Assembly (NCBI GenBank): GCA_038252405.1
Contig: JBBSAJ010000008.1
Location: 26,866 to 90,865, forward strand
Source of the DNA: Actinomycetes bacterium
GTDB taxonomy: Bacteria; Actinomycetota; Actinomycetes; Prado026
Direction: 5' to 3'
Length of the DNA stretch: 64,000 nt
Made by a program: the position numbers and the translations under genes. Each line of letters opens with the position of its first letter. Position 1 is the stretch's first letter. Under the pieces are notes generated by a model. The model worked only from the letters and a program-made list of their open reading frames with translations. It was not told where the DNA came from and searched no databases. Below, one piece after another: positions 1-23,563 of this stretch.

Positions 1-1043
1 CCGGCGGTGGAGGTGTAGCGGCTCCAGATGGCCCGGCGCGCGGCCGCGTCCGGCGGGCCGACCGGGACCAGGTAGTCGAAGCGGCCGGGGCGCAGGAACG
101 CCGAGTCGAGGGAGCGCACCGAGTTCGTGGCGCAGACCAGCAGCCGGGTGTCCCGCTCCCGGAAGGTCGGGATCAGCTTGAGCAGCTCGTTGGTCACGCC
201 GTGCGCCGGTGAGGTGGGCTGCCCGTCGCGCAGCCCGGCGATCTCCTCCACCTCGTCGATGAAGACCAGCACCCGCTCGAGGTCGGCGACCCGGGTGAAG
301 ACCTCGCGCAACGCGGCGGCCAGGCCGCCGGCGTCGGCGGCCAGCCGGGACGGGAAGATCTCTACGAACGGCCAGCCCAGGCGGGAGGCGATGCCACGGG
401 CGAACGTCGTCTTGCCGGTGCCGGGCGGCCCGAACAGCACCGCCGCCCGCGGTGGGACGACCCCGTGGGCGGCGGCCCGTTCCGGCTCGGCCAGCGGCAG
501 GATGATCCGCCGTTCGATGAGCTCCTTCTCCCGCTCCATGCCGGCCATCCGGTCCCACAGCCCGGCTGGCAGCACCCGGCCGCCGAGCGCGTCCAGGGTG
601 GCGGCCTCGCCGGGGGCGAGCGCCTCGATCTTCTCGAAGTAGGCGACGGCCGGACGGCGGCCGTAGCCGGCCTTGGCCAGGCCCTCGGCGAGCTGCTCCT
701 CCTCGGGCAGCACGTAGGAGATGCGGCGCACGTGCAGCTCCACGAGCAGCCGCTCGAGCTCCAGCAGCAGCCGGCTGACCAGCCCCTGGCCGCGGCAGTC
801 GGGGGCCGCGGCGATCCGCATCACCCAGCCGCGCTCGCCGCTGATGGTGGCCAGCGCCGTCCCCACGACCCGGCCGGCGCTCACCGCGACGACGGCCGGC
901 TCGTTGGCGCGCAGCGCCGCGATGCACTCGCCGACCGAGAACACCGAGCTTTGCCCCAGGTCGCCCGTGGCGTCCCACAGGTGGACGACCGCCTCGAGGT
1001 CGTCGTCGTGGTACTCGCGAACCAGCCACCCCATGGTCACCAT
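1..1043 (-). CDS. GNAT acetyltransferase-AAA ATPase fusion protein (runs off window start)
   Basis: Manual translation from ATG 1043 (or 1034): N-terminal GNAT-like region (RGQGLVSRLL), then Walker A GPPGTGKT, Walker B VFIDE and SRH-like AFLRPGRFD. Absent from the ORF track because it is truncated by the window edge. Confidence 0.85.
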   Translation of the reverse strand, partial: MVTMGWLVREYHDDDLEAVVHLWDATGDLGQSSVFSVGECIAALRANEPAVVAVSAGRVVGTALATISGERGWVMRIAAAPDCRGQGLVSRLLLELERLLVELHVRRISYVLPEEEQLAEGLAKAGYGRRPAVAYFEKIEALAPGEAATLDALGGRVLPAGLWDRMAGMEREKELIERRIILPLAEPERAAAHGVVPPRAAVLFGPPGTGKTTFARGIASRLGWPFVEIFPSRLAADAGGLAAALREVFTRVADLERVLVFIDEVEEIAGLRDGQPTSPAHGVTNELLKLIPTFRERDTRLLVCATNSVRSLDSAFLRPGRFDYLVPVGPPDAAARRAIWSRYTSTA

Positions 1044-1126
1044 CGGGTCAGCCTAGGGTGCGGCTTGCGGTGCCCCGGCGGCGGTGTGCCCGCGCGGCTT
1101 GCCCTCCACGGTCGTCCTCCCTACGG

Positions 1127-1142
1127 TTGGATCCAATATCCA
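1127..1142 (+). promoter_or_regulatory. Candidate GntR operator upstream of acyl-CoA dehydrogenase
   Basis: TTGGATCCAATATCCA; 13/16 identical to the reverse complement of the palindrome at 4466-4481. Confidence 0.55.
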
Positions 1143-1162
1143 GACTGCCTTGGAGTGCTCGA

Positions 1163-2338
1163 ATGGCCGACAGCCCGGTTGCCCCCCTCGACCTGATCGC
1201 CGCCGACTCGCTGCTGTCGGAGGAGGAGCGCGAGATCCGCGGCACGGTCCGCCGCTACCTCGACTCCGAGGTGCGTCCGCACATCGCGGAGTGGTTCGAG
1301 TCCGGGGAGCTGCCGGCCCGCGAGCTGGCCCGGGGCTTCGGCCAGCTGGGCCTGCTCGGCATGCACCTGGAGGGCTACGGCTGCCCGGGGACCAGCGCGG
1401 TCGCCTACGGGCTGGCCGCCCTGGAGCTGGAGGCGGTGGACTCCGGCGTCCGGTCGCTGGTGTCGGTGCAGGGGTCGCTGGCCATGTTCGCGATCCACCA
1501 CTACGGCAGCGAGGAGCAGAAGCTGGAGTGGCTGCCGCGGATGGCGGCCGGCGAGGCGCTCGGCTGCTTCGGGCTGACCGAGCCGGACTTCGGCTCCAAC
1601 CCCGCGGGGATGCGCGCCACCGCCAAGCGGGACGGCGCGGACTGGGTGCTCGACGGCACCAAGATGTGGATCACCAACGGCTCGATCTCGGACATCGCCG
1701 TGGTGTGGGCACGCACGGACGAGGGGATCCGCGGCTTCGTCGTCCCGACCGACACCCCCGGGTTCACCGCGAACACGGTCAAGCACAAGCTCTCGCTGCG
1801 GGCGTCTGTGACCAGCGAGCTGGTGCTCAACGGCGTGCGGCTGCCGGACTCGGCGGTGCTGCCCGCGGCACGGGGCCTGGCCGGACCGCTCGGATGCCTC
1901 AGCGAGGCACGGTTCGGCATCGTGTTCGGCGTCATGGGGGCGGCGCGGGACAGCCTCCAGGCGGCCATCGACTACGCGCTGGCCCGCGAGCAGTTCGACC
2001 GGCCGATCGCCGGCTTCCAGCTCACCCAGCAGAAGCTCGCCGACATGGCCCTGGAGCTGCAGAAGGGCTACCTGCTGGCGCTGCACCTGGGTCGACTCAA
2101 GGACGCCGGGCAGATCACCCCGCAGATGGTCAGCGTCGGCAAGCTGAACAACGCCCGGGAGGCGCTGCGGATCGCCCGGGAGGCGCGCACGATCCTGGGC
2201 GGCAGCGGGATCACCACCGAGTACTCGCCGCTGCGGCACGCCAACAACCTCGAGTCGGTGCTGACCTACGAGGGCACCAGCGAGATCCACACCCTGGTGG
2301 TGGGCCAGGCGCTCACCGGCCTGTCCGCCTACCGCTGA
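1163..2338 (+). CDS. Acyl-CoA dehydrogenase (glutaryl-CoA dehydrogenase-like)
   Basis: Motifs GCFGLTEPDFGSN, LDGTKMWITNG, REQFDRPIAGFQLTQ and YEGTSEIH; ATG 1163 chosen over the upstream ORF-track start. Confidence 0.9.
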   Translation: MADSPVAPLDLIAADSLLSEEEREIRGTVRRYLDSEVRPHIAEWFESGELPARELARGFGQLGLLGMHLEGYGCPGTSAVAYGLAALELEAVDSGVRSLVSVQGSLAMFAIHHYGSEEQKLEWLPRMAAGEALGCFGLTEPDFGSNPAGMRATAKRDGADWVLDGTKMWITNGSISDIAVVWARTDEGIRGFVVPTDTPGFTANTVKHKLSLRASVTSELVLNGVRLPDSAVLPAARGLAGPLGCLSEARFGIVFGVMGAARDSLQAAIDYALAREQFDRPIAGFQLTQQKLADMALELQKGYLLALHLGRLKDAGQITPQMVSVGKLNNAREALRIAREARTILGGSGITTEYSPLRHANNLESVLTYEGTSEIHTLVVGQALTGLSAYR

Positions 2339-2349
2339 CCCCCGCCCGC

Positions 2350-2577
2350 CTACCCCCGGGCGGCGATGCAGACGTCCCGGTGCTCACAGCCCGGGCAGCT
2401 GGCGACGCCGACCTGGCCGTTGTGGCCGTGCTCCTCGTGCCAGCAGACGCCGCACGTCTTGCACAGCAGGTTGTCCTGGGCGCCGGTGTCCACCCAGGTG
2501 GTGTGGCTGCTCCCGCAGCCCGGGCAGCGCGTCGCCACGCCGACCGGGCCGAGCGGGTCCATGAGGTACGAAGTCAC
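2350..2577 (-). CDS. Small Cys-rich, putative zinc-binding protein
   Basis: 75 aa with CPGC, CKTCGVC and CPGC..C; fills the gap between convergent genes. Confidence 0.6.
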   Translation of the reverse strand: MTSYLMDPLGPVGVATRCPGCGSSHTTWVDTGAQDNLLCKTCGVCWHEEHGHNGQVGVASCPGCEHRDVCIAARG

Positions 2578-2667
2578 GGCGATCGCCTCCTGACCGGGTC
2601 TGCTCCTGCCGGCAGCGGACCAGATGGCCGACGGGTGGACCAGAGCCGAACGTCCCGAACCGGTGGG

Positions 2668-3336
2668 TCAGCTGGGCAGAATCGAGCGCAGGTGGTCCAC
2701 GGCGTGCTCTCGGTGGACGTCGAGCAGCCGGACCACCTCCTCCACGTCCCGCCGCCGCACGGCATGGAGCACCGCCCGGTGCTCGGCGGTCACGGCGTCC
2801 CGGTTCGCGTCGTCGCCGTAGTAGACCGAGCGGTAGGTGTCGGTCGCGTCCCACAGCACCCGGACCAGCCGGGCCAGCCGCGGCATCCGGGCCGCCTCCA
2901 CCAGGCCGAAGTGCAGCCGGCGGTTGGCGGCCGTCATGGCGGTCAGGTCCCCGCGCGCCGCGGCCGCCTCGCAGTCGGCCACCGCCTCCGCGGCCCGCTC
3001 GACGTCCTCCTCGCTCAGCCGGGGCACGCCGACCCGCACCGCCTCCGACTCCAGCAGGGTGCGGATCCGGTACACCTCGATCAGGTCGGTGACCGACAGC
3101 TCGGTCACGAAGTAGCCGCGGTGCGGCTCGTAGGTGACCTGACCCTCCCCCTCGAGGATCTTCAGCGCCTCCCGCAGCGGCACCCGGGAGACTCCATACG
3201 CCTCGGCCAGCGCCTCCTGTCGGATCTGCTGACCCGGCGCCAGCTCCCCCGACACGATGGCCCGGCGCAGCGCCTCGAGCACCGCCTCCTGGGCGGTCGG
3301 CGGACGCCGGAAGTCCTCGGCCGAATGGACGCTCAT
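2668..3336 (-). CDS. GntR family transcriptional regulator (FCD domain)
   Basis: HTH segment LRRAIVSGELAPG...YGVSRVPLREAL plus FCD-like C-terminus; ATGA overlap with the CoA-transferase stop. Confidence 0.9.
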   Translation of the reverse strand: MSVHSAEDFRRPPTAQEAVLEALRRAIVSGELAPGQQIRQEALAEAYGVSRVPLREALKILEGEGQVTYEPHRGYFVTELSVTDLIEVYRIRTLLESEAVRVGVPRLSEEDVERAAEAVADCEAAAARGDLTAMTAANRRLHFGLVEAARMPRLARLVRVLWDATDTYRSVYYGDDANRDAVTAEHRAVLHAVRRRDVEEVVRLLDVHREHAVDHLRSILPS

Positions 3337-4463
3337 CGAAGCTCCCTCAGCACCTCGTCGGTGTGGGCACCCAGCGTCGGGGGCGGCCGCAGGTAGCGCA
3401 CCGGGGTCGCCGACAGCCCGATCGGGTCGGCCACGGTCCGGATGCCGTCCACGGTGACGACCGGAGCCAGCCCGAGCCGCTCGGCCAGCGCCATCGCGTC
3501 GCCCACGTCGTTGATCGGGCCGCACGGCACCCCGGCGCCGGTGAGCAGGGCCGCCCACTCCTCGGCCGGCCGGGCGGCCAGGGCTGCGGTCAGCTCCGCG
3601 GCCAGCGCGTCCCGGTGCGCGACCCGGCTCGGGTTCGTGGCGAACCGCGGGTCGGTGGCCAGCTCCGGGCACCCCAGGACGCCGGCCAGCGCGGTGAACT
3701 GCCTGTCGTTGCCCACGGCCAGCGCGAGCGGCCGGTCGGCGGTGTCGAGCACCTCGTACGGCGCGATCGAGGGGTGCCGGTTGCCCATGATCCCCGGCAC
3801 CACCCCGGCTGCCACGTACCCGGACGCCTGGTTGACCAGTGCGGACAGCAGCGAGGACAGCAGGTTGACCTCCACCCGCTGCCCCTCGCCGGTGCGCTCG
3901 CGGTGCCGCAGCGCGGCCAGGATCCCGATCGTCGCGTGCAGGCCGGTGACGACGTCGACGAGCGCCACCCCGACCTTCGTGGGCTCCCCAAGGCCCGGCC
4001 CGGTGACGCTCATCAGCCCGCCGACGGCCTGCACCAGCAGGTCGTACCCCGGCAGCCCCGCGCCGGCGCCGCGGCCGAATCCGGTGACCGACGCGTAGAC
4101 CACGGACGGGTTGAGCGCCGTCACGTCGTCGTACCCCAGCCCCAGCCGCTCCATCGTCCCCGGCGGGAAGTTCTCGATGACGACGTCTGCCCGCGCGGCC
4201 AGCCGCAGCGCAGCCGCGCGTCCGTCGGTCGTCTTCAGGTCGAGCGCCACCGACCGCTTGTTGCGGTTGACACCGAGAAAGTAGGTGGCCTCCCCGGACT
4301 CCGTCCAGGGCGGCCCCCAGGCCCTGGTGTCGTCGCCGGCGCCCGGCCGCTCGACCTTGACCACGTCGGCGCCGAGATCGGCCAGCAGCATGGTGGCGTA
4401 CGGGCCGGCCAGCACCCGGCTGAAGTCGGCCACCACGACACCGGCCAGGGACGCATCCGTCAT
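3333..4463 (-). CDS. CaiB/BaiF family III CoA-transferase
   Basis: [32 protein letters not shown] and GYD motifs. Confidence 0.92.
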
Positions 4464-8492: not shown

Positions 8493-9425
<933 letters not shown>

Positions 9426-15269: not shown

Positions 15270-16451
15270 TCAAGCACCGCCACGCGGCGGCGGGTCGGGA
15301 TCGTCCGAACGGCCAGGGGTCTCCGCCAACCGGTACCCCCCGGCCGCTCCCTCCACCAGGCCCAGCAGCTCGAGCTGCCGGATCCGTTGGAGCACCAGGT
15401 CGAGGGACAGCCCGGACACCGATGCCAGCTTGGCTGGGAGGCTGGGCCGCCGGACCGGCACCGCCTCCAGCACCCGCAGCGCCACCGGGTCGAGCAGGTC
15501 CTCGGGCCGGGTCTTGCCAGCAGTCGGCGGCGGCAGAGCCAGCCCGTCGGTGAGCGAGCCGACCAGCTCGACGATCTCGCCGGCGTGGGTGACCAGTGCC
15601 GCCCCGAGGTCGCGGATCTCGTGGTGACAACCGGCCGACATCACCGAGGTCACCGGCCCAGGCACGGCCATCACCTCCCGGGAGAGCGACCGGGCCCAGC
15701 CCGCCGTGTTGCGCGCCCCGCTGCGCAGTGCGGCCTCGACCAGGACGGTGCCCCGGGTCAGCGCGGCGATCAGCCGGTTGCGGTCGAGGAACCGGGCCCG
15801 GGTCGGATGGCACCCCGGGGGCAGCTCACTGACCAGCAGCCCCTCGGCGGCGATCCGGCCGAACAGGGCGTCGTGCCCGCGCGGGTAGGCCACGTCAACG
15901 CTGTTGGCCAGCACCGCCACAGTCGAACCGGCGCCGGCCAGCACCCCGCGGTGCGCGGCCGCGTCGATGCCGTAGGCGCCGCCGGAGACCACTGCCCACC
16001 CGGCGTCCGCGAGGCCGGCTCCCAGCTCGGCCGCCACATGCGTGCCGTACGCGGTGGCCGCCCGGGACCCCACCATTGCCACCGACCGCAGCGCGGCGAA
16101 CCGCAGGTTGCCGGGGCCGCGCACCCACAAGGCCAGCGGCGGAGCGGTCGGGCCCCTGGCCCCGACCGAGCCGGCCAGGTCCTCAAGCTGGCTGGGCCAC
16201 TCCAGGTCGCCGGGCACGACCAGCCGGGTGCCCGTGCGCCCGGCCCGGTCGAGGTCGCGTTCGGGGTCGGCGTCGGACAGCCGGGCCCGGTAGTGCTCGA
16301 CCCCGGGCAGCCCCGGGTCACCGGCCCGGACCTGCTGCAGCACCTCGAACGCCCCGAACCGCTGCACCCGTTGCCACAACAGGGGGTCGTTGGGCTCGGC
16401 CAGCCGACACAGCGCGGCCCTGGCGACCCGGTCGTCGTCCGGGCCGGTCAT
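15270..16451 (-). CDS. dprA: DNA-processing protein DprA
   Basis: [32 protein letters not shown] and VEAALRSGA; ATGA overlap with the comM stop. Confidence 0.94.
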
Positions 16452-17087
16452 GCCGCGGCCCCCGGGATCGCGGCACTGGTCCGTAGGTCGATGGCCTGCA
16501 GCACCTCGGGCACGCCCGGCTGGTCCCGGCCGGCGAGGTCGGCGAGGGTCCAGGCCACACGTAGCACCCGGTCGACGCCGCGGGCGGTCAGCCGGCCGCG
16601 GCCGAACGCGTCGTGGAGCGGCGCCAGCGCGGCCGGGGGCAGCCGCCAACGGGGTCCGCGCAGCTCGACGCCCGGCACCCGCGCGTTGCAGGCCCAGGGG
16701 GTGCCCAGCCAGCGCTGTTCGGCACGCTCCCGCGCGGCGAGCACCCGGCGAGCCACCGCGGCCGACGGCTCGTGCCGACCGGCGTCCAGCAGCTCGACCC
16801 GGCTCGGCTGGGTGACACCGACCACCAGGTCGATCCGGTCGAGCAGTGGCCCGGACAGCCGCCCGGTGTAGCGCATCTTCTGGATCGGGGTGCAGGAGCA
16901 CGCGGCCGGCTGGCCCGGCACCACGACGCCGGACAGCCCGCACGGACAGGGGTTCGCAGCCAGCACCAGTTGGAACCGGGCCGGGTAGCGGACGCTGCCC
17001 CTCGATCGGTCGAGCACCACCTCGCCGGACTCCAGCGGCTGGCGCAGCGAGTCGAGCACGCCGGCCGCGAACTCCGGCGCCTCGTCG
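16448..17087 (-). pseudogene. comM: 3' half of the split comM/yifB (Mg-chelatase-like AAA+ ATPase)
   Basis: DEAPEFAAGVLDSLRQPLESG, LAANPCPCG and LSGPLLDRID; in-frame TAG four codons upstream, inside the element arm. Confidence 0.92.
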
Positions 17088-17107
17088 TGTGAATGCTATT
17101 CGCACCC
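17079..17107. other. Left attachment junction: 9-bp core GCCTCGTCG plus 20-bp arm
   Basis: Core 17079-17087; arm TGTGAATGCTATTCGCACCC 17088-17107. Confidence 0.85.
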
Positions 17108-17157
17108 TACCGGCAGGGGCTGTGGGGTAGGTCCCTGGCGAGCCCGAGGCTCTATTT

Positions 17158-18039
17158 CTACGTCAGTACGTCTACCAGTTCCGCGGTTGCCAGGAGCGGC
17201 CAGGAGCATCGGGGCCGCCCCGCAGGCGTCGTCCCTGTCGGTGACGCAGAGAAGCTGACGCAGGACCAGTGACGTTCTGCCGGAATAGGAGAGGACCCCG
17301 TTGCGGGGAAGTTCAGCAGCTGCGCCGGCTCCACGCGGTCGATCCCGGCTGTCGGAGGCGTTCTCGCCGCTGCGACCGTCCCGGGCTTCCCTTTGCTGAC
17401 CGAGACGTGCTCGACGATGCTCTTGCCGAAAGACTCAGCGACCCACTTGTCAAACCGGAAGGGACCAATTCTTCTCGTCAAGACCCGGAGCTTCTCGTCA
17501 GGACCCGGACACACCCGACCCGCAGGCCAGCAGTGATGTGGCGCTTGACGTGGCGATGCCGCTGAGGTTCCCGTACGGCGTCCCGGTGAATTCGGGCGGA
17601 ATGATAGTTGTAGGAGCCTGTGCCATTGTTTGGACAACCGTAGGACCAGTGAGCGCTTACGTCAGCGTAGCCCGACTCGGGGGGTGTTGCCCGCGTAGCT
17701 GTAGGCTCGATACTTGGACTAACTGCTTCGCTCAAGCCAGGTGTAGGTGATCCTGATCAGGTCCGTGGCGCTGGTTCTCGACTGCTTGCCCCGGCCGGTC
17801 ACGGGATCTCCCTCAAGGTGATAGCTGCGGACCGCGTTCGCCACAGCCTGCCCAAGACGGACCACGTTGGCTCCGCCGTTTGCGGCAACACCCCGCTCAA
17901 TCAAGAAGACGACAGACTGCCCCTCGGTGACCCTGGCGCTCGACTCGGTCGTATCCGTATCGCGCCGAAGATGCATGGACTGGGTCCGGTAGTCGTAGGT
18001 GGTGTCGGTTCGGGACAAGACCACGTCCGAGCGCGACAA
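17158..18039 (-). pseudogene. Possible degraded gene of unknown function inside the element
   Basis: Staggered ORFs 17719-18039, 17478-17735 and 17158-17637; the last two join in frame if one copy of a 20-bp tandem duplication (17471-17510) is removed. Confidence 0.3.
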
Positions 18040-18267
18040 AGCACCGGTCGACCGGTGCCCGTGGGCGAAGTGGGCCGCGTCCCGGTCGTGCGTCGTGGGG
18101 GCCGCGCTCGATCGTGGTGCTTGTCGCCCCGGCGCGATGGTGATGGCTGTCCTAGGGGTAGGTCACGCGGTGAGGATCGACATGCGGAGCCGCCGCTCCC
18201 GCCGCAGTGGGGCTGAACAGCGCCGCGACGACGGCTGCGAGGCAGGCGGCAAGGCGTCGAAGGAAGA

Positions 18268-18726
18268 TCATTCGATCGACACCTTGAATACGAGTCGACC
18301 GAAGTCCGGCTCAAGCCCAATGTCGGTGCAGGAGTATCGCCGTGAACCATCCGGAAGCACCTCGACGAACATCCCCGACGTTTCACTCTGAGATTCGAAC
18401 CGACCGCGGCCCCGACCCGAGTCCCAGACGTTGTAGATCACCAGCCGCCCATCCGTCTGCCCTACCTCGATCACCGACCGGGTTGGTGCGGAGTCGCTCC
18501 AGAGAACCAGCGACGGACTCGAAGTTCCGGCGACAACAAGCTGGCCAGCCGTAGCGAGAAACACGCCCTGTCGCCAACGAGGTCCGACAGACTCGAAGAT
18601 AAGAGTGATCCGCTGGCCTGGCGAGATCGGCAGCGCTTCGATCTTGACGGCTGGCTGACCGTCCGGGCCGCTAACGGACTTGCTCAGGGTCCTGTCGGGG
18701 AGCCGGGCCGGACCGAACGAAGTCAT
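18268..18726 (-). CDS. Candidate immunity protein (152 aa)
   Basis: Directly downstream of the toxin with ATGA overlap; protein-like composition; family not recognised. Confidence 0.65.
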   Translation of the reverse strand: MTSFGPARLPDRTLSKSVSGPDGQPAVKIEALPISPGQRITLIFESVGPRWRQGVFLATAGQLVVAGTSSPSLVLWSDSAPTRSVIEVGQTDGRLVIYNVWDSGRGRGRFESQSETSGMFVEVLPDGSRRYSCTDIGLEPDFGRLVFKVSIE

Positions 18727-20036
18727 GGCGTCGGTCCTGTGTAGAAGCGGAACGGATCAACTGCGGCATGCTCCCAGGGCCACAGCGGTTCCAGGTTGTC
18801 GAGGGTGTGCCCTCCGCCCTGCCACCTCGGGACGATGTGGTTCAGCTCCTTTGGCACACCGAGTTCATCCTGCAGCGGAGGCTTCCCGGCCTCCATGCGG
18901 GCTAGGTTCGACGCACTGTACTCGCCTTCGAGGGCGTCGTTAGCTGCGTTCTTCCAGTACCTCGCACGAACCGTGGACCACGATGGCGAGTTCCCAGCCC
19001 TCGTCAAGTTCTCGATTGGATCGCCGACCCTCCAGCCAGTTGCTGCGGTGTCTGCGGCGCGCCGCCGCAGAACGTCCTGAATGACGGACATCCGCGGGGT
19101 GGTGATGTTGTCGCCGATCATGGCCAGCTGGTTCTCGGTCAGCTGACTGACGTCGTAGCACTTCGTCTGCCAGTCCTCGGAGGCGTTGGCCCGCTCGTGG
19201 AAGCAGTACTTCCCATCCAGCTGCCCGATGAACTCCCGCTCAGGCTCCGGGCCGGTCATGTGGAGGATCGGAAGGGTGTATGCGGGCGGGACCTGCAGGC
19301 TCTCCGGGATGCTGTAGACCGAGACGGCCAGGTCGCTGCCGCTGTGCGTGTTGGCGGCGGGGGTGGTGGAGGCAGTCGGCAGCGGGGTCGTGGCCGGCGG
19401 CAGCGGCGGCGGCGGGGTCCCGGTGATGATCGGGACCGGGATCTCGTCCGGCTTGGGGGTGGTGCAGTGCCCGCTGACGAGGACCTCACCGGCCGGGCAC
19501 TGGGTGCCGTGCCCGCTCGCGGGTGTCTTGGTGCCGGTGGACACGCCCCCGGTGGCCTTCGTCTTGGCCTTGGTCGGCGCGCTTGGCTTCGCCGTGGTTG
19601 TCCGGCCCGCGGGGTGCGCGTGGGACCCGCTGCTGCTGCTGGAGGACGACGTTCGGGTGCCTGTCGAGATGGCCTGTGCCGCGCGCGCGATCGCGGCAGC
19701 GCTGTAGAACCCGGCGGTGCGCTCGCTCATTGCCATCGCGTCGCCGCTACGCTCGGAAAGTGCAGCGACCTGCTCAGCGCTGACGACGGTTCCCTCCCCG
19801 GCCACCTCTTGCGCCCGGATCTCCGCGGCGGTGGCCTGCGCCACGTCCGCCTCGTAGTTGGTCTCGCTCAGGCGGATGTCTGCCGGCGTGACCCAGACGG
19901 GAAGTCCGCCAGCCGGCTCTCCGCCGCCCGCCCAGCCTGCTCGCAGCCCGGACGGGTCGTTGTTGCTGACCGGGTTGCCGCCGGCGTACGCGTACGGGTT
20001 GCCGGCGTTGACCAAGGTCGTGGGAGGTGAACGCAC
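18723..20036 (-). CDS. Rhs C-terminal part: core end, Pro/Thr linker and HNH/EndoVII-like nuclease toxin
   Basis: NPYAYAGGNPVSNNDPSGL (Rhs DPxG motif); tip ...KELNHIVPRWQGGGHTLDNLEPLWPWEHAAVDPFR. Confidence 0.75.
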   Translation of the reverse strand: MRSPPTTLVNAGNPYAYAGGNPVSNNDPSGLRAGWAGGGEPAGGLPVWVTPADIRLSETNYEADVAQATAAEIRAQEVAGEGTVVSAEQVAALSERSGDAMAMSERTAGFYSAAAIARAAQAISTGTRTSSSSSSSGSHAHPAGRTTTAKPSAPTKAKTKATGGVSTGTKTPASGHGTQCPAGEVLVSGHCTTPKPDEIPVPIITGTPPPPLPPATTPLPTASTTPAANTHSGSDLAVSVYSIPESLQVPPAYTLPILHMTGPEPEREFIGQLDGKYCFHERANASEDWQTKCYDVSQLTENQLAMIGDNITTPRMSVIQDVLRRRAADTAATGWRVGDPIENLTRAGNSPSWSTVRARYWKNAANDALEGEYSASNLARMEAGKPPLQDELGVPKELNHIVPRWQGGGHTLDNLEPLWPWEHAAVDPFRFYTGPTP

Positions 20037-22284
20037 CGGTCGTCGGGTCGTACCAGCGGGCGTTCATGTTCACCAGACCCGTGCCGGAGGTCCAGCCGCC
20101 CTGGTACCCCAGCTTCGTGGTGGACGTCCCGGTGGTGGAGTCGACGGTGCCGTACGGGGTGTACGCCGTCGTCGCGGCCACGGTGCCGGTCGGGGACACC
20201 TGCGCGAGGACGTCGCCGCGGCTGTTGGTGAACGCGAACGTGGTGGACGCCCCGGTCTTCACCGACAGCAGCCCAGCGGCCCGGCCGTACGTGGACGACC
20301 CGTCGGTCACCGGGGACGTCTCGGTGCCGGCGTAGGTGAACGTCGCGGTGCCGGCGGTCAGCAGCCGGCCGAGACCGTCGTAGGTGTTGACGGAGCCGCC
20401 GTCGGAGGCGAGCTGGTCGTACGCGTTGTGCTGCGTGCTGCGGGTGCCCAGGCTGGTGGTGGTCGTCGCGAGGGTGCCGCGCGCGGTATACGTGTACGTT
20501 GTGGTTCCGGCGGTCAGCAGCCGGTCCCGCGCGTCGTACGTCGCGGTGGTGCCGTTGACGCTGGTCCGGTTGCCGTTCGCGTCGTAGGTGTACGTCTCCC
20601 CACCGCCGCCGGGCTTCGTCCAGCTGAGGAGGCGCTGGGAGCGGTCGTAGGTGTAGGTGTTCGTCCCGACCCCGGCGCCTGTCCCGACGACGGTCTGGGA
20701 GGTGACCAGGTCCCCGGTGAAGGTGTCCTGGTACCCGTAGACGGTGGTGCCGGCCTGCGCGACGGTGTCGGAGGTGACCCGCCCGGCCGCGTCGTAGCCG
20801 AGGGTCTCCACCGGGCCCCCCGTGCCGTAGGTGACGGTCGTCGGGCGGTCCGCCGCGTCGTAGCCGTAGGCGATCGTCGCGCCGGACACCGGGTCGACCA
20901 CGCTCGCCAGCTGCCCGCCCGTGTAGGTGTAGCTGGCGGTCCCGGCCGCGTCGGTGCGGGTCGCGACCCGTCCGGCCGCCGTGTAGGTGAACGACGACGC
21001 CCCGGCCGGACCGGCGCTGGAGACGAGCAGGTTACGGTCGTCGTAGGTGAACGTCTGCGCCGCGTTCGTGCCGACCTTCGCCGAGACCAGCCGCCCGACC
21101 GGGTCGTAGCTGAACGCCAGCGACGGTGTTGCGACCTCCGCGCCCGCACCCGACTGGGAGACCAGCTGCCCGTAGGAGTCGTAGCCGTAGGACACGGTCA
21201 CCCCGCCGGGCTTCGAGACGGAGGCCAGCTGTCCGGACACGTCGTAGGTGTAGGTGGTCTGCCGATCGGACAGCGTGGTCTGGCCGGCGGTCGACGGCTC
21301 CGTCGAGGTCTCCACCTGGCCCCACGTGTTGTACGTGACGGTGCGGTCGTACGCGTCGGTCGCGCCCGCGACGCCGAGGCCGGGGCGGGAGCGCACGACG
21401 CGGCCGTCCAGGTCGTAGTACACCTGCGAGGTCGACGTGGTGGGGCTGGCCGTGGTCCCGGTCGGGATCGTGGTCGCGGTCGGCTGCCCGTTCTCGTTGT
21501 ATCTGGTGGTGGTGGTGTTGCCCTCGGTGTCGGTCGTCGCGGTGGTCAGTCCCGCCGCGTCGTAGCCGTAGCTGCGGGACACGACCGCGGTGCCGGACGG
21601 TGTGTAGGAGGTGACGGTGGCCGGCTGCCCGTAGCCGTCCTGACCGGTGGTGTACGTGGTGGTGGTGTACGCCCCGGTCGGGTCGGTGGTCGTGACCGGG
21701 CCGAACACTCCGTAGGAGGTGGTCGTGGAGTGCCCGGTCGGCGGGGTGACCGTGGTTGCCCGGCCCAGGTTGTCGTAGGCGTAGCTGGTCGCCGCACCGT
21801 CCGCGTCGACGCTCTTCACCAGCTGCCCGTAGATGTCGTGGTAGGCGTAGGAGGTGTCCAGCCCGGTGCCGGTGCCCGGCTTGAACAGCACGGCGGTGGC
21901 CAGCCATGGTGCGGCACCGGTGCCGAACGTCGCGGCCGGGGTGCCGCCGGCGTTGACCGTCTGGTCCTCCACCAGCGTCTCGATGTGCCCGTTCGGCGCA
22001 ACGTCGACGCGGCTGGTCCACCCGGCGCCCGGTGTGAGGGTGACGTCGAACCCGGAGTCGGTGTAGAACCCGACCGCGAGCTCCGGCGTGGACGCCGCGG
22101 CGGCGGTCGACCCGGAGGACACGGTGGCCGTCCCGGTGGTGGTGCCGTACGCGGCGGTTGTCGTGTCGACTGCGCCGGTGCCGGCGGCGGTGGACAGCCC
22201 GGAGTACTCCACCAGGTCCGCGCCGACGTCAGCCGACCCGGTCGCGGTGACCCGCCCACTTGAGTGGGTGCGAACAGCTTTCAC
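20020..22284 (-). pseudogene. Rhs/YD-repeat core, 5'-truncated at the element arm and frameshifted near 20020
   Basis: Many YD repeats (YDAAG, YDLDGR, YDPVGR, YDANGNRT) and LGYQGG...NARWYDPTTGAF; the frame changes before NPYAY. Confidence 0.85.
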
Positions 22285-22295
22285 ATGCCTCGTCG
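22266..22295. other. Right attachment junction: 20-bp arm, T, 9-bp core
   Basis: Arm GGGTGCGAACAGCTTTCACA 22266-22285; core GCCTCGTCG 22287-22295. Confidence 0.85.
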
Positions 22296-23206
22296 AGGAA
22301 CAGCACCCCGTGGTGGGCCAGGCTGGCCGCCCCCGGACGGGCGATCCCGCTGCCCCCGCCGACGACCGAGGCGGCCGAGGCGGTGTGGTGCGGTGCCCGG
22401 AACGGCGGCCGCTCGAGCAGCGGGCGCCCCACGGGCAGGGTCCCGGCCACCGAGTGCACGGCGGTCACCTCGAGCGCCTGCTCCCGGGTCAGCGGCGGCA
22501 GGATGCCGGGCAGCCGCTCCGCGAGCATGGTCTTCCCCGCGCCCGGCGGGCCGTGCAGCAGCAGGTGGTGGCCCCCCGCCGCGGCGATCTCCAGCGCGTG
22601 CCGCGCCGCCTGCTGGCCGGCCACGTCGCCGAGGTCGGGCCCGGTCCGGTCCAGTGCGGCCGGTGGGGCGGGCTCCGTCAGCACGGCTTCCCGCTCGCCC
22701 CGCAGCACCGCGACGAGCTCGCCCAGCGAACCGACGGCGAGCACGCTCAGGTCGGGCACCAGCGCCGCCTCGGCCGCGTTGCCCTCGGCCACCACCACGC
22801 GGCTCAGCCCCGCGGCCGCGGCCGCGAGGACGGCAGGCAGCACCCCTCGCACCGGACGGACCCGGCCGTCCAGCCCCAGCTCGCCGAGCAGCACGAGGTC
22901 GGCCACCCACCCGGGCCGCAGCCGCCCCGACGCGGCCAGCACCCCCACGGCCACGGCCAGGTCGAACCCGCTGCCGCGCTTGGGCAGGGACGCCGGGGAC
23001 AGGTTGACCGTGAGCCGGTGCTTGGGCCACGGCTCCCCGGTGTTCAGCACCGCCGCCCGCACCCGGTCCCGGGCCTCGTTGAGCGAAGCGTCCGGCAGCC
23101 CCACGAGGGTCAGCCCCGGCAGCCCCGAGGTGAGATCGACCTCCACCTCGACGACATGGCCGACCACCCCGACCAGGGCCACCGACCGGGTCCGCGCCAG
23201 CGCCAC
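22287..23206 (-). pseudogene. comM: 5' half of the split comM/yifB
   Basis: VNLSPASLPKRGSGFDLA, Walker A GPPGAGKT, RAPHH and HHGVLFLDEA, then element-derived residues to a stop at 22229. Confidence 0.93.
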
Positions 23207-23563
23207 TCAGCACACCCCCCGCACGTGGTCGACCAGCGCCGGGCCGCGGTCGGGCCGTAGCACTCCGACGACATCGATGCGGACGGCGGCCGGGTGCACG
23301 CCCCGCTCGGCCAGCCACCGGGCGGCCAGCCGGCGCAGCCGGGCCGCCTTGCGCGGGGTGACCGCCTCGAGCGGGTCGCCGTACGAGGTGCTGCGCTGGG
23401 TCTTGACCTCGCAGACCACCAGCACGTCGCCGTCCCGGCCGAGGATGTCGATCTCCCCGGCTTCGCAGCGCCAGTTCCGTTCCAGGACCACGATGCCCTG
23501 CGCGGCCAGATGCCTGGCCGCGACGTCCTCCCCGTACCGGCCGAGCGCATCAGTCGCCCGCAT
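23207..23563 (-). CDS. yraN: YraN family nuclease-like protein
   Basis: [22 protein letters not shown] and EVKT; abuts the comM start. Confidence 0.92.

Follow-up and report, generated by a model that had tools for sequence, protein, structure and literature searches.

We found that comM of an uncultured actinobacterium, encoded on the minus strand of a 64-kb window (the whole stretch of DNA that was analysed), is interrupted after the residues LFLDEA by 5,199 bp of insert. This sequence of about 5.2 kb is real foreign DNA placed exactly inside the Walker-B codons of comM. We see about an even chance that it belongs, as a defective and non-autonomous member, to a family of integrative elements that target comM, most likely of the serine-recombinase type. 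A precisely bounded, site-specifically inserted element had been proposed in an earlier sequence-only reading of this DNA, and the exact junctions together with an empty site in relatives bear this out.

Insertion in comM

The interrupted operon comprises the following genes.
15270 to 16451, minus strand: dprA, 393 aa (open reading frame list; gene call and Pfam DNA_processg_A match on the Logan contig L014)
16448 to 17087, minus strand: 3' part of comM, from the APEF... codons to the stop (open reading frame list)
22229 to 23206, minus strand: 5' part of comM, 307 codons, reading on into the arm with an 18-aa tail, CESCSHPLKWAGHRDRVG (open reading frame list, gene call)
23207 to 23563, minus strand: yraN (UPF0102), the upstream gene of the operon (gene call)

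Deletion of 5,208 bp (17088-22295) yields a single comM frame of 516 codons (...HHGVLFLDE/APEFAAGV...) whose stop overlaps the dprA start by 4 nt (ATGA), as had been claimed. The 3' part is an open frame without disabling mutations and is 95.7% identical to the intact comM of the relative L027. In Pfam, the 5' part matched ChlI/Mg_chelatase and the 3' part both Mg_chelatase and Mg_chelatase_C. Assembly reads that fail to span both junctions had been named as possible evidence against the element. The two junctions are spanned, with one mismatch, by an independent Logan contig assembled separately from the same source run (SRR19962010; 9,686 bp; even depth of 18.1), and the insertion is thus not an assembly artefact. 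The cut separates Walker B of comM from the sensor and C-terminal domains, and the product should be inactive. The start of dprA overlaps the comM stop, so polar effects of the insertion probably reach this gene, and dprA, being translationally coupled to comM, may be down-regulated. The locus yraN-comM-dprA had been described as serving DNA uptake; it is instead a DNA-processing and recombination locus.

Sites at the ends of the insert

The junctions are composed of these elements.
17053 to 17078, plus strand: left bacterial half-site (B), containing GGCCGCGAACTCC, a 9/13 match to the outer arm motif
17079 to 17087, plus strand: left core or direct repeat, GCCTCGTCG; the sense strand, CGACGAGGC, encodes Asp-Glu-Ala of Walker B
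17088 to 17107, plus strand: left inverted arm (P' half-site or left TIR), TGTGAATGCTATTCGCACCC (sequence, pattern search)
22266 to 22285, plus the unpaired T at 22286, plus strand: right inverted arm (P half-site or right TIR), GGGTGCGAACAGCTTTCACA (sequence, pattern search)
22287 to 22295, plus strand: right core or direct repeat, the second 9-bp copy of GCCTCGTCG
22296 to 22321, plus strand: right bacterial half-site (B'), encoding HHGVLFLD, with GGGTGCTGTTCCT on the opposite strand, a 7/13 match to the arm motif

Sequence comparison confirmed the previously noted 9-mer direct repeat and the inverted arms, which are complementary at 18 of 20 positions. The 20-bp arm pattern occurs at only these two places in the window (0 expected, 100 shuffles); the 9-mer is not rare by itself, with six occurrences on the plus strand. 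Joining the ends gives a 50-bp pseudo-palindrome with 20/24 dyad symmetry about a non-palindromic centre, TC. The symmetric 50-bp site of the sequence-only reading therefore stands as a pseudo-palindrome, its symmetry made imperfect in the window by the single T (22286) between right arm and right repeat. Likewise, the size and shape of the site fit a large-serine-recombinase attP as proposed, while the serine type itself would be an assignment from site geometry alone. In the comM half-sites the outer motif is displaced inward relative to the element arm, by 5 bp in B and 7 bp in B', and such a motif pair at the host positions has an empirical frequency of 0.3-1.6%. A 5-bp motif shift and 25-bp half-sites are known for the LI/A118 integrase (PMC3783163). 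B' is very conserved in comM across the sample, with a depth of about 386 in run X1 between 22290 and 22320.

Several features count against a serine recombinase. A 20-bp TIR abutting a 9-10-bp direct repeat is also exactly the trace of a DDE transposon, the inward shifts are unequal (5 vs 7 bp) with modest statistical support, and a truncated Rhs sequence directly adjoins the right arm, a bare half-site. The main rival is accordingly a mobile insertion cassette, that is, passenger DNA between 20-bp IS TIRs, moved by a DDE transposase acting in trans with a strong preference for the comM sequence and leaving a 9- or 10-bp target duplication. We consider this rather unlikely. Its geometry is classical, with 18/20 TIRs starting TGT...ACA and directly abutting GCCTCGTCG on the left, and the end-specific sequence beside the Rhs fragment is only 20 bp. 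A T at 17078, as in run X29, would give a perfect 10-mer, TGCCTCGTCG, abutting both arms; in the window itself the 10-mer is imperfect (C vs T), or else one T is left over. The element also lacks any recombinase, a feature of MICs and MITEs, and these can be activated by a cognate transposase located elsewhere (PMC3129680). Resemblance of the target flanks to the arms speaks against the cassette, as do the findings from other lineages described below.

Integration by a tyrosine recombinase, either a lost integrase of the element or a host Xer-type enzyme as in recombinase-less IMEX, would place the overlap region in the 9-bp repeat and use the arms as core-type binding sites. Tyrosine-recombinase cores have 6-8 bp between inverted arms. 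Here the arms are 10 bp apart and the conserved motifs 24 bp, the comM half-sites match the arms only after a 5-7-bp shift and not at equal spacing, and no arm-type repeats were noticed. An identical 9-bp shared core with inverted repeats directly beside it and the missing recombinase would suit such an enzyme. So would a xerC gene 1.2 kb downstream, but this is an ordinary conserved neighbour of dprA, found likewise in relatives with an empty site. We regard this explanation as improbable.

Empty sites and other lineages

Comparison with relatives having an intact comM, as had been suggested, revealed an empty site with a single copy of the 9-mer in L027, a contig of 1.2 Mb from a relative with 95.5% identity. 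This contig encodes an intact 516-aa comM and aligns to the window in two parts, which meet on that copy, at the insert position. Empty comM sites were also present in runs X2, X3, X23 and X29.

A contig from run X29 covers 16932-17203 and thus carries the same left junction as the window, with T at base 17078, which would make the repeat 10 bp. Its comM flank differs from the window at nine positions, one of them 1 bp from the core and eight at third codon positions (binomial p 0.001), while core and element together show a single substitution and a single indel over 125 bp. Third-position flank sites differ at 8/49 compared with 2/125 for the element (Fisher p 0.0007; worst case p 0.005). 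Divergence changes exactly where the element ends, a pattern that neither vertical inheritance nor import by homologous recombination would readily produce. The junction has the same element end at an identical nucleotide in a second lineage whose host sequence has diverged, and we take it as an independent insertion. No X29 contig matched 17204-20095, and sequence from run X23 departs from the window after 17128, which suggests that the element interior is variable between X29, X23 and the window.

A 2,053-bp contig from X23 contains an attP-like arm-core-arm junction, GGGTGCGAAGAGC-GCCCTCTCGA-GCCTCGTCG-TGTGAAT-GCTATTCGCACCC, with a core-adjacent flank unlike the comM continuation after Asp-Glu-Ala; it may be a free attP, a tandem junction or another arrangement. 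The left arm (17088-17107) is identical in this contig and in the X29 junction contig. The P-side arm of the X23 contig lies 2 bp farther from the core than that of the window, and the two sites are not superimposable, which again counts against the serine type. The outer 13-mer is present in all four known half-sites and the core-proximal bases vary, a pattern opposite to that of DDE transposon tips. For the mobile insertion cassette, it is unfavourable that two lineages use the same nucleotide position and that the second X23 arm keeps the subterminal 13-mer with entirely different terminal bases beside the same 9-mer, a change that the cleavage site of a transposase would not tolerate. In the source-metagenome contigs each arm occurs once, with no transposon-like copy number found elsewhere. 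End-pattern searches of the window, the source and JGI metagenome contigs, IMG/VR, plasmids, phages and one genome for each of 185,579 GTDB species returned no other copy of the ends; exact-pattern matches in database searches all look like chance, L003 excepted. Homologous arms with DDE transposases at variable targets, which had been named as evidence against the original proposal, were searched for and not found.

The same data make a one-off illegitimate insertion or an assembly chimera practically negligible. The 9-bp identity could serve as microhomology, but both junctions are spanned in two independent assemblies, the same junction exists in another sample and host background, and 18/20 inverted arms are beyond chance expectation. 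The spanning Logan contig and the X29 junction contradict this candidate.

Cargo of the insert

Besides a broken Rhs gene, the insert contains a candidate immunity ORF, a pseudogene for a secreted protein and an end segment of 0.65 kb.
17108 to 17752, no strand: conserved end segment of the element family, with a small hairpin (17140-17152) and the 3' part of the secreted-protein gene
17498 to 18271, minus strand: secreted-protein pseudogene with signal peptide (six-frame reading)
18268 to 18726, minus strand: 152-aa ORF directly after the toxin, possible immunity gene (by position only)
18723 to 20036, minus strand: Rhs C-terminal part after the frameshift, with DPxGL region, linker and toxin tip
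about 18762 to 19037, minus strand: colicin-E7-like HNH DNase domain (PDB sequence search, colicin E7 DNase, E 7e-5)
20018 to 20026, minus strand: Rhs frameshift (+1 or -2) between ...FTSHD and LVNAGNPYAYA, from comparison with P0002 (...FTSHDPLNAGNPYAYA...)
19774 to 22284, minus strand: 5'-truncated Rhs/YD-repeat fragment, 836-aa ORF (Pfam RHS_repeat, 6e-36; NCBIfam YD_repeat / RHS_core)

The first 130 aa of the Rhs fragment are the C-terminal half of a domain, and Rhs homology begins at aa 6-13, the inner edge of the right arm (BLASTP to P0074 and P0118). Its nearest relative, P0002 (68% identity), is also a fragment, in an Rhs array. The Rhs_assc_core profile is matched only up to position 50 of 76, and Pfam HNH/LHH/Col-Pyo_DNase scores on the toxin tip were below the cut-off. 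The 152-aa ORF (GC3 = 0.71) had no family or PDB match, was not called as a gene on L014, and is possibly the immunity gene of the toxin. For the secreted-protein pseudogene, which has three reading-frame changes, one at an in-frame stop, a homologue search found none. Pieces of the end segment recur in other metagenomes at 97-100% identity, with a different context beyond 17752; they lack two of the extra bases of the window (17594 and 17679), and this absence restores one frame. The cargo consists largely of pseudogenes in decay, with the DNase tip and putative immunity gene as the only plausibly useful part.

Integration and excision

Site-specific recombination is favoured over random transposition because of the X29 junction, the X23 arm-core-arm structure and the inward-shifted motifs in comM. 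The target of the family would be the comM Walker-B codons GAC GAG GCN, with integration as a conservative attP x attB exchange inside the 9-bp core, TC (GA on the coding strand) being the likely central dinucleotide. A large serine recombinase would bind a conserved outer motif, GGGTGCGAA-N-AGC, which lies about 16-24 bp from the centre in the site of the element and is about 5 bp closer to it in comM. This enzyme may be encoded, now or formerly, by an autonomous relative or by a since-lost part of the element. The insert and the 64-kb window contain no serine or other recombinase and no directionality factor, and the insert no transposase or phage genes. With the enzyme encoded elsewhere or lost, the insert would depend on help in trans to move or excise, and excision would require a recombinase and a directionality factor from elsewhere.

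The source-run contigs, which drop rare variants, include neither a circular junction nor an empty site from the same strain. The proposal of a potentially excisable element thus has to be set against an insert that lacks a recombinase and an excised form in these contigs. A regulated switch toggling comM and dprA by active excision, comparable to Listeria comK, had also been put forward. Both att-like junctions are intact, neither comM half has disabling mutations, and the flank evolved under purifying selection (8/9 differences synonymous), all of which would suit a switch. An excisable switch of the comK kind is nevertheless speculation, because no recombinase is present, the cargo is mostly decaying pseudogenes and the contigs show neither circle junction nor empty site. 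In addition, the sister lineage L026 has simply deleted yraN-comM' across the insertion site, which suggests that comM loss is tolerated rather than toggled. We consider such a switch highly improbable; the insert is probably a stranded mobile cassette and not a proven genetic switch.

Comparison with known systems

That comM/Mg-chelatase genes are recurrent integration targets, as previously noted, agrees with four IMG/VR actinobacterial proviruses (L020, L022, L023, L024) in which serine-integrase genes adjoin comM breaks, and with phage WO sr1WO, which integrates into an Mg-chelatase gene (PMC9203015). In L023 and L024, proteins of 477-480 aa with Resolvase and Recombinase domains start within tens of bp of the breaks, where our insert has a truncated Rhs ORF; L020 and L022 have similar matches. 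L016, L015 and the right side of L024 show independent breaks inside the same 10 bp. The Walker-B point of our insert differs from the insertion points of L020-L023. Large-serine-recombinase prophages and islands inside genes (Listeria A118 in comK, WO sr1WO, L023/L024) share with the insert a comM/Mg-chelatase-type target, exact restoration of the gene upon removal, a pseudo-palindromic element site of about 50 bp with a short core in common with the bacterial site, and an outer motif nearer the centre in the latter. Unlike them, the insert has no integrase, directionality factor, phage or conjugation genes, and consists of only 5.2 kb with a broken Rhs toxin gene as cargo.

AbaR/Tn6022-type islands interrupt comM of Acinetobacter baumannii at a fixed position. 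Such islands belong to the Tn7-like transposons, carry tns genes and come with a 5-bp duplication; none of this is found in our insert. Orphan Rhs toxin/immunity modules are built in a similar way, with a nuclease tip at the C-terminal end of a 5'-truncated Rhs core and a small ORF downstream of it. Such modules are usually found behind a full rhs gene and exchanged through homologous recombination, whereas the module described here is isolated inside comM between att-like ends.

MICs, MITEs and TIME-COMPs, non-autonomous DDE derivatives, have short TIRs, a 9-10-bp direct repeat and passenger genes without a transposase (PMC3129680; PMC13367494), as does the insert. In contrast to them, it is single copy with no cognate IS found, has one target nucleotide in two lineages and arm-like target flanks, and its related X23 junction keeps subterminal rather than terminal bases. 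SCC cassettes offer another parallel, being bounded by serine-recombinase att sites with degenerate inverted half-sites around a central dinucleotide and a core motif common to all sites, having a conserved housekeeping gene as target, and including recombinase-less members alongside autonomous ones (bioRxiv 10.64898/2026.03.31.715619). They belong to another phylum, target rlmH instead of comM and differ in sequence; SCC integrates at the 3' end of its gene without destroying it, whereas the insert splits comM mid-gene.

The insertion and its empty counterparts

The data establish that the 5.2-kb DNA splitting comM in the window is a copy, without a recombinase, from a family of site-specific mobile elements whose ends are conserved and whose cargo varies. 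The window is taken from a high-GC actinobacterial contig, complete in run X1 (SRR19962010, a sediment metagenome). The break in comM falls directly behind the codons for ...HHGVLFLDEA, and the insertion site has the following features:

Minus strand, in gene order: rnhB, DUF2469, yraN, comM, dprA, xerC and a sigma-factor gene
17079-17087 and 22287-22295: 9-bp core GCCTCGTCG
17088-17107 and 22266-22285: inverted arms, 18/20 complementary over 20 bp
comM stretch around the break point: GACGAGGCN
Predicted empty-site junction (comM rejoined): GCGAACTCCGGCGCCTCGTCGAGGAACAGCACC
Predicted circle junction (element ends joined): GAACAGCTTTCACATGCCTCGTCGTGTGAATGCTATT

Deletion of 5,208 bp in silico yields a 516-codon comM frame whose stop overlaps the dprA start; upon re-reading of the window, the coordinates that the sequence-only reading had assigned to repeats, arms, deletion and restored frame proved right. 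The core 9-mer is common in this GC-rich window (six copies, + strand), and the arm pair is improbable (0 expected). Both junctions were verified by an independent Logan contig of even depth which crosses each of them. An assembly chimera is thereby ruled out, and chance or an assembly artefact as the origin of the arrangement can be regarded as excluded.

The core abuts the left arm directly, whereas on the right side a lone T (22286) lies between arm and repeat. If the repeat is taken as a 10-mer, the window copies differ (C vs T), and run X29, a bioreactor metagenome, has T at the left. These details bear on the main rival explanation, in which a DDE transposase of strict target choice would have moved a cassette flanked by IS ends. 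Inverted ends of 20 bp together with a 9-10-bp repeat are the textbook signature of such a cassette, and no gene of its own would be needed, as in MIC cassettes, which lack their own transposition gene (PMC3129680); the leftover T or mismatched 10-mer speaks against it. Overall, we consider this explanation unlikely, though deserving of attention.

Comparison with a relative carrying an intact comM, as suggested by the sequence-only reading, restored the gene exactly with one core copy. This relative (L027, 1.2-Mb contig ERZ25039517 contig_27524) is 95.3-95.7% identical to the window over 13.5 kb and carries yraN, an intact 516-aa comM, dprA and xerC with a single 9-mer; the alignment breaks exactly at the repeat, with 9 bases matching both copies. 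Other comM contigs in X29, the freshwater-sediment run X23 and two further metagenome runs (X2 and X3) likewise read from ...GCCTCGTCG straight into AGGAAC.... Of four lineages in the ca. 95%-identity clade, two have the insert, one an empty site and one a deletion.

The deletion-bearing sister lineage (L026; GCA_036510875.1, DATCDE010000168.1, positions 8700-9000, window equivalents 17050-23452) is 95-96% identical. Its deletion begins at yraN (window 23453) and extends 38 bp beyond the insertion point, so that yraN now meets comM 30 bp to the left of the core; the comM 5' part is lost together with the insertion site. The leftover comM 3' fragment has several amino-acid changes. The deletion suggests that the clade tolerates loss of comM.

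Evidence of present or recent site-specific mobility

A 273-bp contig in X29 crosses the left junction. Its comM flank has nine differences from the window, one of them 1 bp from the repeat and eight at third codon positions (p 0.001 under neutrality), while only one substitution and one indel are found over 125 bp of repeat and element. Comparing third-position sites with the element gives a Fisher p of 0.0007, or 0.005 if both unlisted differences are charged to the element. It follows that selection acted on comM while the flank diverged, and that the element is several-fold younger than the host split. The divergence step falls at the element end, which excludes both vertical descent from one old insertion and an import of the element together with homologous flanks. 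The X29 copy probably has a different interior, since there is no X29 contig for 17204-20095.

Geometry of the proposed recombination site

A 2,053-bp contig from X23 reads TTCACCC GGGTGCGAAGAGC GCCCTCTCGA GCCTCGTCG TGTGAAT GCTATTCGCACCC TACCGGCAGGGGCTGTGGGGTAG and continues into diverged but recognisably related sequence. Its core-side flank does not resemble the comM continuation after Asp-Glu-Ala but is a second arm opposing the first across the same 9-mer (arm-core-arm). This junction may be a free attP, a junction of tandem elements or something else. The outer 13-mer GGGTGCGAA-N-AGC is kept in all four known half-sites (left and right, window and X23). On the P side, the X23 core-adjacent bases are entirely different, the spacer differs from that of the window and the arm lies 2 bp further from the core. 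In transposase ends the tips are most constrained, whereas serine-integrase sites combine a strongly recognised outer motif with a looser inner part. The conserved outer 13-mer and variable core-adjacent bases thus fit serine-integrase sites rather than transposase ends, and the lack of tip conservation in X23 counts against a DDE cassette.

When the window ends are joined, they form a 50-bp pseudo-palindrome of the attP kind, in which the dyad symmetry (20/24) is centred on a non-palindromic TC, every other centre yielding at most 10 matches among the 26 positions compared. In the rejoined comM target, the left half-site (B) carries GGCCGCGAACTCC, which matches the arm motif at 9/13 positions and lies 5 bp nearer the centre, and the right half-site (B') carries GGGTGCTGTTCCT, which matches at 7/13 and lies 7 bp nearer; a half-site pair as good as this occurs at 0.3-1.6% of host positions. 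Rutherford et al. report attP half-sites 25 bp long, with the zinc-ribbon-domain motif shifted 5 bp inward in attB (PMC3783163). The comM and arm geometry agrees with this pattern inexactly and is suggestive of it.

A tyrosine or Xer-type mechanism is improbable, as the arm spacing fits poorly. A dif/Xer (IMEX) site was considered, the arms resembling the E. coli XerC arm by eye, but was rejected with the arms 24 bp apart. No Rfam family, tRNA or tmRNA was found in or near the element, which is therefore not at a tRNA-type att site.

comM as a recurrent target

When the rejoined ComM was compared with IMG/VR, eight actinobacterial proviruses were found. Two of them (L023 and L024) encode 480- and 477-aa proteins with Resolvase and Recombinase domains starting within tens of bp of the comM break, and two others (L020 and L022) carry similar genes beside the comM match. 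Phage WO likewise inserts into a Mg-chelatase gene by means of the large serine recombinase sr1WO (PMC9203015). The claim of the sequence-only reading that comM is a recurrent integration target is thus upheld, and comM is a target of large serine recombinases. Independent breaks within the window's 10 bp were seen in L016, in L015 and at the right side of the L024 comM piece.

The comM breaks in L020, L022, L023 and L024 at about residues 36-104, and after ...LDCLRQ, are at positions other than the window's. In L024, a comM piece (residues 82-306) has phage-like DNA on both sides, which suggests two elements in one gene. L016 (positions 400-1400 of a Logan ERR10961030 contig) stems from a lower-GC organism, and its comM is broken at codons identical to those in the window (LFLDEA|RRNIIT...); a 283-aa dCMP-deaminase/MafB19-like deaminase gene faces the junction, and the other end lies beyond the contig. 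L015 (GCA_030048415.1, JASIMW010000204.1, positions 1-3698) holds two comM pieces. The first is a complete 3' part reading through LFLDEAPEF; three small genes follow, with no family match for the two scanned. The second is a partial copy which starts near Walker A, breaks right after LFLDEA and is followed by a 1-kb insert, with about 58 codons missing. The arrangement has the appearance of an element carrying a comM 3' end of its own, which took the place of the host's.

Within the window, 22290-22320 (30 bp of comM encoding HHGVLFLDE) has a depth of ca. 386 in run X1, where the host contig reaches 18. Dozens of other X1 organisms share it at 88% identity or above, which would make it highly portable as a target.

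Cargo of the element

The flanks have a GC content of 75-80%, which drops to 61-68% over 17100-19300. The largest gene of the element is:

19774-22284, minus strand: Rhs/YD-repeat ORF (RHS_repeat 6e-36, YD_repeat, Rhs_assc_core)

The features of an Rhs polymorphic toxin are present (YD-repeat shell, Rhs-associated core with its DPxGL end, and C-terminal tip) in a gene that is 5'-truncated and frameshifted. Homology to full-length relatives begins mid-domain: residue 6-13, where it sets in, coincides with the inner edge of the right arm. A bare 20-bp arm adjoins the truncated gene; a frameshift near 20022 splits the ORF from the remaining Rhs core and tip. The tip resembles the colicin E7 HNH DNase (PDB sequence search, E 7e-5), with Pfam matches below cut-off. 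A following 152-aa ORF of low GC3, without relatives, may be an immunity gene by position only. Next comes a secreted-protein gene, a pseudogene in the window whose frame changes three times and whose frame-restored C-terminus had no match in a protein search.

The closest Rhs relative (68% identity) is an orphan fragment within an Rhs array, without arms. Its contig (L013, ERZ25039500 contig_26391, positions 1-3500), from the same ENA study as L027, shows a typical orphan array in which toxin tip and small gene precede the 5'-truncated fragment. The comM 5' ORF runs 18 codons into the element (22229-22284) and the Rhs GTG start lies within the right arm, so the comM promoter could drive transcription of the truncated fragment; that the Rhs ORF is fused to comM was ruled out because the frames differ. 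The Rhs start occupies the position where comM-targeting phages put their integrase gene.

Metagenomes from freshwater, soil and hot springs contain the final 0.65 kb before the left arm at 97-100% identity, but continue differently past 17752 (TGATAACCAAACGAGCC...). Within it, 17252-17752 (0.5 kb, the 3' end of the secreted-protein gene and downstream DNA) is shared at 97-100% identity by metagenomes from freshwater, soil, sediment and hot springs. Its conservation exceeds that of the housekeeping flanks, and it had no homologue in a word-indexed protein database. A small GC hairpin at 17140-17152, 33 bp inside the left arm, is followed by a T-rich run (GAGCCCGAGGCTC TATTTCT); it could serve the element end as a terminator or for protein binding. 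A similar GCGAGCCCGAGGGCCTC is retained in the X23 relative.

Searches for a recombinase and for further copies

Among element ORFs of at least 50 aa, Pfam detected no recombinase or transposase family, the matches being RHS_repeat and weak HNH only. No large serine recombinase (Resolvase, Recombinase and zinc-ribbon domains) was found in element ORFs or the window, nor did tblastn with the L024 integrase detect a serine integrase in the window. The sequence-only reading had proposed looking for serine recombinases next to the arm in other genomes; exact searches with TGTGAANGCTNTTCGCACCC, which tolerate little divergence, gave chance matches only in GTDB genomes, JGI metagenomes and IMG/VR (a Nitrosomonas gene, an Ignavibacteriales gene and phage genes). 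The arm match in L003 falls in an intergenic region unrelated to this locus, with 20 bp left to the contig end, and cannot be judged. In IMG/VR, the arm-N-core pattern occurred only in a coding region of a 319-kb contig, and the X23 flanking 26-mer, the 30-mer following 17752 in other runs and two 33-mers from 17402-17653 were absent. Neither 17088-18268 nor the 73-bp joined site gave a useful BLAST match in plasmids or phages, and the window has no second copy of any part of the element. Within the limits of exact-pattern matching, the search for further copies or a cognate IS was negative across the window, X1 contigs, GTDB genomes, JGI metagenomes, IMG/VR, plasmids and phages, which again weighs against a DDE cassette.

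The sequence-only reading had further proposed a comK-like switch, in which excision would reactivate comM. This was not borne out and is highly improbable: essential parts are absent, with no recombinase in element or window, and X1 contigs contain neither an excised form nor a circle junction.

Proposed mechanism and consequences

We favor, at about even confidence, conservative integration by a large serine recombinase, its gene either lost since or located elsewhere so that the enzyme acted in trans. Arguments for it are the X23 junction and the motif pattern, the resemblance between target and arms, the element's single copy, the use of one identical site by two lineages, and the comM precedent. 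More tentatively, it is possible that small cassettes with variable cargo (in the window a toxin tip with putative immunity) and only a serine-recombinase attP ride the integrases of comM-targeting phages or islands, the Walker-B codons serving different actinobacterial lineages as a shared, SCC-like docking site.

ComM, a hexameric helicase, is reported to promote branch migration during transformation in concert with DprA (10.1101/147660, PMC12012524). The comM 5' fragment in the window retains Walker A and B and nothing beyond, so ComM activity should be lost in this host; dprA is coupled to the comM stop and may be subject to polar effects of the insertion.

If the proposal is true, HHGVLFLDE, the most conserved comM stretch, is a docking site for different mobile elements in Actinomycetota where recombinase-less cassettes could spread with borrowed enzymes, like ccr-less SCC in staphylococci. 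Toxin and immunity genes would gain a route outside Rhs loci, the comM-dprA recombination pathway would be lost recurrently in natural populations, and a new, naturally validated attP/attB pair for high-GC bacteria would become available once the enzyme is found. If the element was instead mobilised by a transposase, it would be an ordinary insertion with unusually strict target choice.

Excision switches such as comK/A118, spsM/SPbeta and sigK/skin encode their own recombinase, and their regulated excision restores the gene; the window element differs in having no recombinase. AbaR-type Tn7-like comM islands carry tnsABC-type genes, multiple TnsB sites and a 5-bp duplication; such an island was ruled out by the absence of tns-type genes and a duplication of 9-10 bp rather than 5 bp. 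The nearest known analogue of our proposal is the ccr-less att pairs of SCC elements (10.64898/2026.03.31.715619).
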